Positions 3,584 through 5,469 of a stretch of 5,469 nucleotides of DNA are shown one piece after another; the first letter of the stretch is position 1; each line of letters begins with the position of its first letter. The notes beneath the pieces are model-generated. The model did no database searches, had not been told where the DNA came from, and saw only the letters and a list, made by a program, of their open reading frames with translations. Location of the stretch: the IMG/VR virus record IMGVR_UViG_2740892230_000031, positions 1-5,469 of that record; one strand, 5' to 3'. The position numbers were made by a program, and so were the translations under genes. The DNA comes from a virus (taxonomy: Duplodnaviria > Heunggongvirae > Uroviricota > Caudoviricetes).

Positions 3584-4894
3584 ATGGCGAATTCAGCCTA
3601 TCCAGCCGGCGTTGAAAATCACGGAGGAAAACTCCGAATAACGTTTAAGTACAGGGGTAAACGAGTGCGCGAAAATCTTCGCGTGCCCGATACTCCGAAA
3701 AACAGAAAGATCGCTGGTGAGTTAAGGGCTTCTGTCTGCTTTGCAATCAGAACGGGAACGTTTGATTATGCCGAGCGATTCCCTGACTCACCTAACCTGA
3801 AGCTATTTGGCCTGGTAAAAAAAGATATCACCGTCGGTGAACTGGCACAGAAATGGCTTACTCTGAAAGCAATGGAAATCAGTAGTAACGCCTTAAATCG
3901 TTATCAATCAGTGATGAAAAATATGCTACCGAGGCTTGGTCCTGGCAGGCTGGCGTCATCGATTACAAAAGAAGATCTGCTGTTTATCAGGAAAGATTTA
4001 CTGACCGGGGAAAAGGGAAGCAGGAAAACCAGCACGTCCCGAAAAGGAAGAACCGTACCCACAGTGAACTATTACATGACAACAACAGCCGGAATGTTCA
4101 GCTTTGCCGCCGAAAACGGGTATCTGGAGAAAAACCCGTTTAATTCAATAACACCGCTGAGGAAATCAAAACCAGTGCCGGATCCACTGACCAGAGATGA
4201 GTTTAGCCGTCTCATTGATGCCTGCCATCATCAACAGACCAAAAACCTCTGGACAGTGGCTGTTTTTACAGGGATGCGACACGGTGAAATTGCCGCACTT
4301 GCATGGGAGGATATCGACCTGAAAGCTGGCACGATAACAGTGCGAAGAAATTTTACAAAAATAGGTGATTTTACGCTACCAAAGACTGACGCAGGCACTA
4401 ACCGGGTTATACATCTTCTGGCACCAGCAATTGAAGCACTTAAAAACCAGGCGATGCTTACTCGTCTTGGCAGGCAGCATCAGATCACTGTTAAATTACG
4501 CGAGTACGGAAGAACAATTTTGCACGAGTGCACTTTTGTTTTCTGTCCGCAAATCGTTCGCAAGAATCACAAGGCGGGTATTAACTACGCGGTAAGCTCC
4601 ATCGGAGCGACATGGGATTCAGCAATAAAAAGAGCGGGTATCCGATCCCGTAAAGCGTATCAGTCACGCCATACCTATGCGTGCTGGGCTTTATCTGCCG
4701 GAGCAAACCCGACATTTATTGCGTCACAGATGGGGCACTCCAGCGCCAGCATGGTCTACAATGTTTATGGTGCATGGATGCCTGAGTGCAGCGTGACTCA
4801 AGTTGCCATGTTGAATAATGTCCTTAATGCCCGTGCCCCAGACGTGCCCCAAAGTGACCAGGAGGATGAAATAAAATTATATTTTTCAAAATGA
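3584..4894 (+). CDS. int: Phage integrase, tyrosine site-specific recombinase
   Basis: ATG 3584 preceded by AGGAGG (3574-3579); the GTG 3560 start in the track has no SD. C-terminal catalytic signatures [16 protein letters not shown] (Arg), [10 protein letters not shown] (box II R-H) and [12 protein letters not shown] (His and catalytic Tyr). Stop TGA 4892-4894 sits at the wrbA junction. Confidence 0.92.
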
Positions 4895-5469
4895 TAAACC
4901 ATATCCTTAGACATGTTGAAACGATGGCACGCGCAGTCGCTGAGGGTGCAAGCAAAGTCGATGGCGCAGAAGTTGTCGTTAAGCGTGTACCGGAAACCAT
5001 GCCGCCGCAATTATTTGAAAAAGCAGGCGGTAAAACGCAAACTGCACCGGTTGCAACCCCGCAAGAACTGGCCGATTACGACGCCATTATTTTTGGTACA
5101 CCTACCCGCTTTGGCAACATGTCCGGTCAAATGCGTACCTTCCTCGACCAGACGGGCGGCCTGTGGGCTTCCGGCGCACTATACGGAAAACTGGCGAGCG
5201 TCTTTAGTTCCACCGGTACTGGCGGCGGTCAGGAACAAACTATTACTTCAACCTGGACGACCCTTGCGCATCACGGCATGGTAATTGTCCCCATTGGCTA
5301 CGCAGCGCAGGAATTATTTGACGTTTCACAGGTTCGCGGCGGTACGCCGTACGGCGCAACCACCATCGCAGGCGGTGACGGCTCACGCCAGCCAAGCCAG
5401 GAAGAACTGTCTATTGCTCGTTATCAAGGGGAATATGTCGCAGGTCTGGCAGTTAAACTTAACGGCTAA
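4891..5469 (+). CDS. wrbA: wrbA, NAD(P)H:quinone oxidoreductase, 5'-truncated by prophage insertion with a chimeric phage-derived N-terminus
   Basis: 192-aa ORF matching E. coli WrbA from [38 protein letters not shown]... through the C-terminal ...[15 protein letters not shown]. The first ~10 codons differ from native. Its ATG (4891-4893) overlaps the int stop as ATGA. Confidence 0.9.
4895..4930. other. Prophage-chromosome junction (att core region) inside the 5' end of wrbA
   Basis: Downstream of about 4912 the translation matches native WrbA (..[12 protein letters not shown].. here as ..[12 protein letters not shown]..). Upstream the sequence encodes MINHILR instead of the native MAKVLVLYYSMYG (native sequence from memory). 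The exact crossover cannot be placed without the other prophage end. Confidence 0.5.

Follow-up and report, generated by a model that had tools for sequence, protein, structure and literature searches.

In the stretch of viral DNA analysed here (5,469 nucleotides, hereafter the window), the stop codon of a phage integrase gene overlaps the start codon of an open reading frame that runs on into the E. coli gene wrbA, and the question is whether this is a working gene fusion or merely what an integration event left behind. The integrase gene int (3584..4894, + strand) encodes a tyrosine integrase of 436 aa with the Pfam domains Arm-DNA-bind_2 and Phage_integrase, and is placed relative to wrbA just as RefSeq int WP_001401545.1 is. 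Its ORF can be opened at a GTG at 3560 or at an ATG at 3584, the latter with AGGAGG upstream (3574-3579; anti-SD pairing -10.3 kcal/mol). A preliminary sequence-only reading had described a stop of int overlapping an in-frame ATG that reads into wrbA, and the ORF coordinates bear this out: ATG (4891-4893) and TGA (4892-4894) form ATGA (4891..4894, +), a 4-nt overlap present also in the RefSeq annotation of three lysogens. The hybrid 'wrbA ORF (4891..5469, +) has 192 codons for amino acids and its translation corresponds to RefSeq WP_000607018.1.

To place the junction, four att sites were compared: attL from the window, attP from phi191 and 933W, attB from K-12 and attR from EDL933, the last three being taken from genomes other than the source. 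The comparison shows a clean reciprocal exchange in an identical 7-bp core, TTGAAAC (4916..4922), which is the overlap region and the site of strand exchange; the integration point falls within codons 14-18 of E. coli wrbA. The core coincides with annotated ones in the records compared with the window (AF125520, AP000422, AP004402 and LC645446). It is the attL/attR core of 933W (AF125520; for this phage, the GenBank annotation of the attL/attR core and int was the source used), the attachment site of VT2-Sakai and Stx2 phage I, and a "duplication due to insertion" in LC645446. The att site of wrbA phages has likewise been stated to be 7 bp long (bioRxiv 10.1101/2024.03.06.583675). Around the core lies a 17-bp imperfect att site, GACAT-G-TTGAAAC-G-ATG (4910..4926), and the same 17-mer, as its reverse complement CATCGTTTCAATATGTC, has been given as the 933W site in K-12 (bioRxiv 10.1101/2022.08.08.503262). 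It is a hybrid of attP (GACATGTTGAAACCATG) and attB (GACATATTGAAACGATG), which the phage tyrosine integrase recombined inside the identical overlap. The leftmost 5 bp, GACAT, are common to phage and host and hold the His codon of the hybrid ORF. Because the exchange between attP and attB took place inside TTGAAAC, the base of attL at 4915 is a G from the phage and that at 4923 a G from the host; attR has the host A and the phage C. On these alignments, a lambdoid prophage of the 933W / VT2-Sakai / P13374 type sits in E. coli wrbA, and the segment 4880-4935 is its junction on the integrase side, attL.

The prophage insertion in wrbA proposed in the sequence-only reading is thus upheld by the fit of attL, attP, attB and attR to a reciprocal exchange, and the alignment with the uninterrupted K-12 wrbA, which that reading had called for, shows host-derived sequence from the core on and phage-derived sequence to its left. 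Free-phage genomes align to the window up to 4926, and empty-site genomes from 4910 on. That the 5' sequence is the native wrbA start of this strain, with nothing phage-derived in the ORF, or that the G/A difference at 4915 is a strain polymorphism, is practically untenable. The annotation of the ORF as wrbA in RefSeq is the only point in favour of a native start, but about 5,200 complete empty-site genomes align from 4910 onward only, and the sequence left of the junction is identical to free-phage attP. As for a polymorphism, G4915 adjoins the core on its left, the phage side; it is present in attP and absent from both attB and attR. Moreover, curing of 933W was reported to yield G25A (Val9Ile in the annotated wrbA), i.e. 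4915 back to A, so that the site again reads GACATATTGAAAC (bioRxiv 10.1101/2022.08.08.503262). The attP-attB-attR comparison and the alignment of empty-site genomes therefore refute both versions; of the two meanings offered earlier for this base, the edge of the att core stands, as a phage base beside TTGAAAC, and the strain polymorphism does not. If the junction is attL, a wrbA 5' fragment joined to TTGAAACCATGAAGCATTAA should lie at the other prophage end, and a full-length prophage would have an attR of the form ...TCCATGTACGGACATATTGAAACCATGAAGCATTAA. An attR and a complete prophage between the two junctions are seen in the genomes of EDL933 and 2013C-3033.

An attL of the 933W/O104:H4 type in wrbA is already known and ordinary, not new. 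933W (BP-933W) and VT2-Sakai (Sp5) of O157:H7, as well as P13374, TL-2011c and phi191 of the O104:H4 type, have the same integrase and 98.8-100% nucleotide identity over the junction segment. The attL sites of these phages share with the window the core TTGAAAC, the distance of 21 nt from the int stop to the core (which is also that of the 933W annotation), the ATGA and the hybrid ORF. Altogether 86 phage records are 99-100% identical to the window over 4730-4926, and the junction is carried by 216 of 5,426 complete E. coli genomes; by this comparison, the identity with the attL of known wrbA prophages (99-100%) is far beyond chance. Annotations and literature agree with the earlier statement that wrbA is a documented integration site of 933W-type Stx phages. 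The scientific weight of the junction itself is small, wrbA being a textbook Stx-phage site and its 7-bp core having been part of the annotation since the first sequences of 933W and VT2-Sakai.

The window, for its part, is not a continuous piece of one prophage. A run of 10 N (899..908) joins the attR-proximal prophage end (1-898) to the int-proximal end (909-5469), and because of this run the window is read as two prophage ends joined across an assembly gap. The left piece matches 933W 58340..57443 with 100% identity. The right piece corresponds to the early-left region of the P13374/TL-2011c type, its int-proximal 4.5 kb being 99.7-99.8% identical to O104:H4-type prophages. In contrast to either type alone, the source prophage is, as judged from these matches, a mosaic of the 933W type (1-898) and the P13374 type (int-proximal). 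The two pieces lie 56 kb apart in a full prophage, and no complete genome compared has both together in one place. It is unlikely that the element is instead a degraded prophage remnant of about 9 kb, in which the Ns mask real bases and the ygiW-like gene is truly contiguous with int. Collinearity and a shared orientation of the two pieces are what a remnant would show, and truncated phages at Stx insertion sites have been described for O157 in the literature. However, the Ns stand precisely where the L0134/LPD38 tail gene and ant have their boundaries; both genes are commonly repeated among lambdoid prophages, and it is at such repeated genes that short-read contigs end. Furthermore, such a junction occurs in no complete genome compared, and a full prophage of 61 kb is present in genomes that share the int and hybrid proteins of the window. 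With the Ns taken as an assembly gap, the late region, where stxA/stxB are located downstream of Q, lies outside the window, and the nearest relatives are Stx2a, Stx1a and stx-negative 'PPwrbA' prophages alike. The initial caution against calling this an Stx phage was therefore justified.

The integration module resembles that of lambda in several respects: the integrase is a tyrosine recombinase with a separate arm-binding domain, int is located beside attP and transcribed towards it, and the 7-bp overlap lies between imperfect inverted core sites (CATG-TTGAAAC-CATG in attP of the wrbA phage). Upstream of int lies the excisionase gene xis (3232..3531, +; Pfam DUF1233 'putative excisionase', E = 2.8e-30), called xisR or excisionase in lysogen annotations, with the RefSeq start at an internal ATG at 3247. 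Candidate arm-type sites, proposed from repeats alone, are found in both arms of attP, as in lambda. Two direct copies of a candidate arm-type Int-binding motif (TGCCCCAGACGTGCCCCAAA; repeat family D2) occupy 4834..4853 (+) in the P arm, within the C-terminal codons of int, and the P' arm has three further copies of the family, in 31-bp units arranged in tandem. An inverted copy (TGGGGCACT; 4731..4739, - strand) pairs with repeats of the P' arm in AP004402, a circular phage record, as the inverted repeats I5 and I6. By the lambda Int paradigm, these repeats would be bound by Int. Unlike in lambda, the coding sequence of int takes in the P arm with its candidate arm sites, and attB is part of a protein-coding gene and not intergenic.

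The phage-derived 5' end of the hybrid ORF (4891..4915, +) is identical in the attP of phi191 and 933W and differs from K-12 attB; in the free phage, the same segment opens a mini-ORF of 14 codons. The host-derived part (4923..5469, +) comprises native codons 17/18-198 and the stop codon, by comparison with K-12. From residue 10 on, the hybrid protein is 100% identical to residues 16-198 of K-12 WrbA, with 9 synonymous nucleotide differences over 554 nt (4916-5469, core included). The sequence-only reading was right that the phage supplies MINHILRH in place of the native N-terminus, but the phage contribution extends through G4915, which makes the codon there GTT (Val9) instead of the native ATT (Ile15), and it is MINHILRHV (9 codons) that replaces residues 1-15. 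In mechanistic terms, the phage stretch between the int stop and the core simply happens to be open in the wrbA frame, with its ATG overlapping the TGA, and the outcome is a 192-codon hybrid ORF with nine phage codons in place of WrbA residues 1-15.

Such an ORF needs no special explanation. An in-frame ATG before a stop is expected by chance at about 19-46% of arbitrary junctions, and for this reason the fusion ORF as such is not remarkable. Among 73 integrase relatives (up to 71% identity, one genome per species scanned), none has wrbA within 3 kb, and the ATGA overlap is almost absent. A conserved design of the int/ATGA/wrbA arrangement, considered as a candidate, was rejected on the evidence of these diverged relatives, which do not have it; since they lack it, the arrangement looks incidental. 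The fusion ORF would then be a by-product of where attP and attB happen to lie and not an evolved device. Considered as a whole, an attL formed by exchange in the core, an int-internal promoter (see below) and an inactive by-product ORF are, with good confidence, the best explanation of the locus.

Does the hybrid nevertheless retain WrbA activity? The ORF is intact in every lysogen examined, and the exact hybrid protein occurs on at least 1000 contigs, named NAD(P)H:quinone oxidoreductase; RefSeq labels it as intact wrbA, and some records annotate a 181-aa form from ATG4924 instead. The authors of VT2-Sakai annotated wrbA as 'divided by the insertion of prophage'. Against the WrbA models TIGR01755 / NF002999 the hybrid scores 325.6 and 323 bits, with cutoffs of 141 and 132.5, i.e. 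above the equivalog cutoff. However, the NCBIfam profile is matched from position 13 on, leaving 1-12 unmatched, Pfam FMN_red is matched from profile position 17, leaving 1-16 unmatched, and the PDB alignment begins at WrbA residue 12. The hybrid thus does not have the complete flavodoxin-like domain with its N-terminal strand and loop (...VLVLYYSMYGH...), and solved homologues, as far down as 4la4, conserve the segment that is lost here. Taken together, profiles, structure alignment and homologues corroborate the initial view that a conserved N-terminal segment is gone. In flavodoxin-like proteins, the beta1-alpha1 loop holds the FMN phosphate, and WrbA residues 10-15 are presumably the ones that bind it, as in WrbA/flavodoxin-like structures. 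A single-sequence AlphaFold model of the hybrid gave a mean pLDDT of 35 and no usable structure.

Any hybrid product would lack the buried first beta-strand and the beta1-alpha1 loop with its FMN-phosphate site, and for that reason would not be an active quinone oxidoreductase. With the conserved N-terminal segment absent and no Shine-Dalgarno sequence at the start, an active enzyme is, on sequence grounds, unlikely. The opposite case, that the phage "repairs" the interrupted gene with a functional replacement end, as phages in gene 3' ends do, is very improbable. The ORF is indeed intact, in frame and abundantly transcribed, the protein passes the NCBI equivalog model with 326 bits against a cutoff of 141, and Val in place of I15 occurs naturally in other enterobacterial WrbA proteins. 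Yet the phage stretch of nine residues bears no relation to the 15 residues whose place it takes and is shorter by six, the hybrid is without the conserved K(V/I)L(V/I)L(Y/F)YS(M/S)YGH segment, and the chain before helix 1 is too short for both strand and loop. In the literature, wrbA is counted among the genes disrupted by phage integration, in line with the 'divided' annotation of VT2-Sakai, and a K-12 933W lysogen was reported to be more sensitive to oxidative stress (bioRxiv 10.1101/2022.08.08.503262). This sensitivity fits a loss of WrbA, although the phage itself could also cause it. The 3'-end integrators, such as e14 and phage 21 in icd or those in tRNA genes, likewise have a phage arm that keeps the ORF open across the junction. 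In wrbA, unlike in icd, it is the 5' end that is replaced, and because the replacement is unrelated and shorter, the product is not reconstituted.

The name given to the hybrid stems from HMM-based naming, which overlooks the replaced N-terminus. Analyses of pan-genomes, metabolic models or 'core genes' will consequently count wrbA as present and functional in lysogens, although it has most likely lost its activity there. In addition, the A restored at 4915 by excision is open to misreading as a point mutation in wrbA/attB, which apparently happened (bioRxiv 10.1101/2022.08.08.503262).

The transcription of the locus was assessed from data on EDL933 and a K-12 lysogen, not on the source strain. 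For EDL933 wrbA (EHEC locus 6605), transcription start sites were mapped 121 and 122 nt upstream of the start codon, here that of the hybrid (PMC10469882, supplement 6, sheet 3), as against 50 nt in K-12. As EDL933 and the window do not differ between 4724 and a point past the junction, the start of the 'wrbA-yccJ transcript could be projected onto 4769..4770 (+). A -10 hexamer, TACAAT (4757..4762, +), of an outward-facing promoter in the int 3' end has its final T exactly 7 nt upstream of the mapped start. The -35 (GGCACT, 4734-4739) is poor, its region being overlapped by the inverted candidate arm-type copy, and because of this weak -35 the promoter was missed by a generic promoter scan. 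The scan itself was discarded: its site count equalled chance, and its sole match on the + strand (4854-4883) would imply a leaderless mRNA, for which there is no support. Folding of the transcript 5' end revealed no special structure (z = -0.18). Neither this int-internal promoter nor the run of 10 N at 899-908 had been mentioned in the sequence-only reading.

In EDL933 arrays (log2, wild type vs rpoS mutant), Z1423 ('wrbA) gave 12.9 vs 11.4 and yccJ 12.3 vs 10.7; the attR stub Z1504 gave 8.8 vs 2.2, a 93-fold difference. RNA-seq of MG1655::phiO104 gave a log2FC of +0.93 (not significant) for wrbA and of +1.35 for yccJ. The array and RNA-seq signals are not reduced, and the wrbA 3' part and yccJ are still transcribed in lysogens. 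On these published data, the RpoS-dependent wrbA promoter is left at attR, where it drives a stub of 20 codons, and the wrbA 3' part and yccJ are now transcribed from 4769/4770 behind TACAAT. A promoter swap, with the native wrbA promoter driving attR-side phage genes, was considered and rejected, as the rpoS mutant gives a higher signal than the wild type for Z1503 (ratio 0.22), with which the phage genes begin inside attR, while the stub Z1504 depends on RpoS 93-fold. The net effect of lysogeny would be a loss of WrbA function, reversible by excision, together with a changed control of yccJ. Gene-splitting prophages such as Listeria phi10403S in comK, and B. subtilis SPbeta in spsM and skin in sigK, likewise interrupt a conserved ORF that precise excision restores. 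Unlike in these 'active lysogeny' switches, a regulated excision switch is unsupported for wrbA, and its 3' fragment stays transcribed from a phage promoter.

The sequence-only reading had further called the hybrid translationally coupled to int. The stop/start overlap typical of coupled pairs does exist at 4891-4894, but a functional coupling is not established, with the transcription start inside int and a start codon that has no Shine-Dalgarno sequence. Anti-SD pairing at ATG4891 is +1.6 kcal/mol, vs -8.5 for native wrbA, and the leader is 92% A+U and fairly open (probability of being unpaired 0.58). That the hybrid is genuinely expressed by coupling, ribosomes that end int at the UGA reinitiating at the overlapping AUG and yielding WrbA' in proportion to Int, is rather unlikely. 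The overlap is exact, a downstream start without a Shine-Dalgarno sequence is typical of coupling-dependent starts, and the arrangement is invariant in the 86 phage records and 216 genomes. This invariance, however, reflects the near-identity of the whole int-attP segment and not selection, diverged relatives having no overlap. The EDL933 transcript, moreover, begins 1.2 kb past the start codon of int; ribosomes that translate full-length int are hence absent from the main 'wrbA transcript, which does not include that codon. Some read-through from full-length int mRNA may occur besides, but the mapped start is a different one. The in-frame internal AUGs of int on the short transcript (4778 and 4808) have no Shine-Dalgarno sequence either. 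At the protein level, the hybrid was not found in the supplements of an O157:H7 proteome paper, which make no mention of WrbA, nor is WrbA mentioned in the main text of a ciprofloxacin transcriptome/proteome paper. Sakai Ribo-seq tables show yccJ (ECs1159) as ribosome-occupied and do not list 'wrbA, which is unannotated in that genome.

Coupling of wrbA to int is accordingly possible by structure and unproven, and is probably not the main expression route. We infer that, for want of a Shine-Dalgarno sequence, the hybrid start would be translated weakly at most, either by termination-reinitiation on rarer transcripts with translated int or by SD-independent initiation. Given the abundant transcript, the intact ORF and the open, A+U-rich leader, some SD-independent initiation, and hence a stable truncated protein, could occur.

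The published data, which have not been discussed in this respect, indicate that a phage promoter drives the wrbA 3' part and yccJ and that RpoS control is largely lost, which makes 'wrbA-yccJ a small, testable case of prophage regulatory rewiring. We regard it as quite unlikely that the int-internal promoter and the ATGA start are an adaptation that relieves polarity and keeps yccJ and a shortened WrbA of altered function expressed independently of RpoS, or that this is a phage promoter with an integration-dependent target. If the latter were true, it would be a promoter-level counterpart of the integration-dependent sib control of lambda. In the circular genome of the 933W type, the int-internal promoter reads across attP towards the antirepressor-like L0142, and in the prophage it reads into host DNA.

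The window was compared by BLAST with 5,426 complete E. coli genomes and about 50,000 phage records. Over positions 909-5469 it shared 99.7-99.8% identity with the integrase-proximal end of wrbA prophages, including the O104:H4 Stx2a phage (P13374, phiON-2011), TL-2011c, phi191, Stx1a phages and stx-negative 'PPwrbA' prophages. The match of free-phage records ended at 4926, and that of genomes with an empty site, obtained with a narrower query spanning the junction, started only at 4910; a junction query found the junction in 216 (4%) of the 5,426 genomes. All four att sites were then reconstructed from phi191/933W, K-12, EDL933 and the window. 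The attP of the free phage (phi191, 933W) reads CCTTA GACAT G TTGAAAC C ATG aagcattaa, and attB, the empty K-12 site, GTACG GACAT A TTGAAAC G ATG gcacgc; attL (window, EDL933) consists of the phage left arm, G, the core, G and the host right arm, and attR, the other prophage end in EDL933, of the host left arm, A, the core, C and the phage right arm. The four sites represent a clean reciprocal exchange inside the 7 identical base pairs TTGAAAC at 4916-4922, and the junction works like lambda Int recombination between attP and attB, with a 7-bp overlap. Annotations of 933W, VT2-Sakai, Stx2 phage I and the LC645446-series records mark these 7 bp as att core or as duplication, and a '7 bp' att is cited in a 2024 preprint (bioRxiv 10.1101/2024.03.06.583675). 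The insertion of a prophage in wrbA, proposed by the sequence-only reading together with the use of this gene by 933W-like phages, is thus borne out, and alignment to K-12 wrbA, suggested there as a check, defined the core. The junction is attL of the 933W/VT2-Sakai/P13374 family in wrbA: every testable sequence-level feature of it was found, the second junction being seen only in other lysogens.

The same reading had left the G/A difference at 4915 as either the edge of the att core or a strain polymorphism. Because the four-site comparison places the exchange in TTGAAAC, G4915 is the phage base directly left of the core (G in attP, A in attB) and not a polymorphism. Its phage origin is independently confirmed by the curing of 933W from EDL933, after which the annotated wrbA had changed by 'G25A, Val9Ile' (bioRxiv 10.1101/2022.08.08.503262): this is the position of G4915, back in the attB state. 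The authors took the change as a point mutation in attB; we infer that precise excision restored the native attB base, with no new mutation blocking reintegration. In the same work the 17-mer CATCGTTTCAATATGTC, the reverse complement of the window-type GACATATTGAAACGATG, was named as the K-12 integration site. Nothing at the wrbA junction is new in kind; of mild interest are that attB restoration was misread in this way as a mutation, that the hybrid is systematically mis-annotated as an intact enzyme, and that an undiscussed phage promoter keeps 'wrbA-yccJ transcribed.

The integrase gene, int, lies on the plus strand and runs from ATG 3584, preceded by AGGAGG at 3574-3579 (an alternative in-frame GTG lies upstream at 3560), to TGA at 4892-4894; a domain search of its product found an arm-binding domain together with the catalytic domain of a tyrosine recombinase. 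Together with A4891 the stop codon forms ATGA (4891-4894) and overlaps the start of the hybrid, 'wrbA, an ORF of 192 codons on the same strand from ATG 4891 to 5469, the last base of the window; these ORFs agree with those read earlier. In a protein comparison the product was MINHILRHV followed by residues 16-198 of E. coli K-12 WrbA at 100% identity. The start is indeed phage-derived, but it is longer than the MINHILRH first read: phage-specific sequence reaches through G4915, and nine phage codons stand in place of native residues 1-15, with the His codon falling within 5 bp that phage and host share. In the unintegrated state (phi191, L003 ~6488-6532; 933W ends) the ATGA-coupled frame has only 14 codons.

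The missing residues 1-15 hold the conserved segment K(V/I)L(V/I)L(Y/F)YS(M/S)YGH(I/V), which was found in all solved WrbA-family structures examined, including the distant homologue 4la4, and corresponds to the first 16 Pfam FMN_red positions, unmatched in the hybrid. We take this segment to be the central first beta-strand and the FMN-phosphate-binding loop, as in flavodoxin-like proteins. An analogous loop, L1, has been described for FerB (PMC4015959). Judged from the sequence, the 8-9 unrelated residues just before helix 1 could not suffice for both strand and loop, and we therefore infer that the hybrid product is inactive and probably unstable.

Nevertheless, RefSeq/PGAP names the hybrid 'wrbA, NAD(P)H:quinone oxidoreductase', with a 4-nt overlap with int, in all lysogens examined, and the exact protein stands under the NAD(P)H:quinone oxidoreductase name on at least 1,000 contigs; a few records give instead a 181-aa form starting at the internal Met18 (ATG4924). 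The name arises because the hybrid passes the equivalog HMM cutoff (326 bits vs 141) although only profile positions 13-199 of 200 are covered, so that it scores as the WrbA enzyme without containing the full domain. By contrast, the VT2-Sakai annotation describes wrbA as 'divided by the insertion of prophage', and a comparative study counts wrbA among the genes disrupted by integrating phages. In protein clustering at 90% identity the hybrid falls into a cluster that contains both integrases and WrbA proteins and is represented by a 436-aa integrase, suggesting either a bridging int-'wrbA fusion sequence somewhere in the collection or a clustering artefact.

Whether the overlap is accident or design was approached through 73 integrase relatives (≤71% identity), found by scanning bacterial genomes, one for each species. 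None of the 73 adjoined wrbA, their C-terminal tails and stop codons differed, and almost none had the ATGA overlap; an in-frame ATG comes before a stop at about 19-46% of arbitrary junctions. We conclude that this attP/attB pair happens to yield the hybrid ORF as a by-product. The invariance of the junction segment in 86 phage records reflects the near-identity of the entire int-attP module.

Cappable-seq of EDL933 placed the transcription start sites of the hybrid wrbA (EDL933_RS06605, locus 6605) 121 and 122 nt 5' of its start codon (PMC10469882 supplement), as compared with 50 nt for native K-12 wrbA (PMC10469882). EDL933 is identical to the window from 4724 through the junction, and the sites project to 4769/4770, within the 3' end of int. 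A plus-strand -10 element, TACAAT (4757-4762), is preceded by C and has a poor -35; its last T lies 7 nt before 4769. The spacing of this element and start site (4757-4770) is canonical and points out of the prophage; the main text of PMC10469882 does not discuss it. In stationary-phase EDL933 arrays the attR stub Z1504 fell from log2 8.8 in the wild type to 2.2 in the rpoS mutant (93-fold RpoS-dependent), and the hybrid (Z1423, 12.9) and yccJ (12.3) were still high, with only a ~3-fold drop without RpoS. RNA-seq of MG1655 and isogenic MG1655 with phiO104 in wrbA gave wrbA counts of 204/183/574 in the naive strain vs 774/841/1371 in the lysogen, hence no reduction (log2FC +0.93, p = 0.21), and yccJ rose (log2FC +1.35, p = 0.017, padj 0.25). 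Together, these data indicate that 'wrbA and yccJ are read from a phage promoter, with RpoS control largely lost; in Sakai, ribosomes occupy yccJ. The native wrbA promoter, left at attR, drives a stub of 20 codons, MAKVLVLYYSMYGHIETMKH*, strongly RpoS-dependent in EDL933 (Z1504). That it also drives adjacent phage genes was rejected, as Z1503, an antirepressor-like gene on the attR side of EDL933 outside the window, was higher in the rpoS mutant; its ~4.5-fold rise parallels that of dinF, an SOS gene listed in the same table, and suggests that spontaneous prophage induction is more frequent when RpoS is absent.

The proposed translational coupling of 'wrbA to int stands as far as the stop/start overlap is concerned, but no other sign of coupling was found. 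ATG4891 showed no Shine-Dalgarno pairing (best anti-SD duplex energy +1.6 kcal/mol, compared with -8.5 for native wrbA and -10.3 for int), the 25 nt 5' of it are 92% A+U and moderately open, and RNA folding revealed no special structure at the 5' end of the mapped transcript. As this transcript lacks the int start codon, and its internal int-frame AUGs at 4778 and 4808 are likewise without a Shine-Dalgarno sequence, coupling is possible only on read-through int mRNA. No evidence for the hybrid protein was found in the published proteomic or Ribo-seq results examined.

A search of the circular phage record found the motif (G)TGCCCCA(A) in both attP arms: two copies in the P arm within the C-terminal int codons (window 4834-4853), one inverted copy at 4731-4739, and six copies in the P' arm, spread over three tandem 31-bp units (phage record L083, 1813-1905). 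By analogy with lambda, these repeats are plausible candidates for arm-type Int sites. Related integrases retain (A/G)TGCCCCA in their C-terminal codons. Because the inverted copy lies across the -35 region of the outward-facing promoter, bound Int might modulate that promoter.

Further left, ten Ns (899-908) divide the window. Positions 1-898 match the far end of 933W, the one next to attR, at 100% identity and contain the YgiW/BOF-family gene L0136, L0135 and the stop codon of the L0134/LPD38 tail gene, at which this piece ends exactly. The right piece starts at 909 inside an antirepressor gene, of which it holds the final 7 nt, and continues through a hypothetical gene, an MT-A70 methyltransferase, DUF1382, DUF1627, DUF4222, xis and int. 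No complete genome among the 5,426 had both pieces in one place. Strain 2013C-3033 shares the int and hybrid proteins, and its counterparts of the two pieces sit at opposite ends of a 61-kb prophage, ~56 kb from each other. Hence the Ns most likely mark a gap left by assembly or scaffolding at the boundaries of repeats; that they mask bases in a deleted prophage remnant is less likely. With such a gap, the part of the prophage that would show its stx status falls outside the window. In composition the prophage appears mosaic, its right end being of 933W type and its left end of P13374 type: 1-898 is 100% 933W-type (Traversvirus; ygiW-like L0136, L0135), and the int-proximal 4.5 kb are 99.7-99.8% P13374/TL-2011c-type (Oslovirus). 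In the closest complete lysogens the ygiW-like module is missing from attR. A GC-rich hairpin, CCCCGCACTTCCGTACGGGG, lies 3' of the tail-gene stop (870-889); it also occurs ~500 nt past attP in phi191 (L003 ~7010-7030), which accounts for an extra short BLAST piece, 862-898, in some phage matches. Between the DUF1627 and DUF4222 genes, at 2586-2950, alignments to the closest lysogens are split in two by an indel, and the DUF1627 gene itself varies in length: 354 nt in the window, 390 and 381 nt in two lysogens, and 228 nt in phi191.
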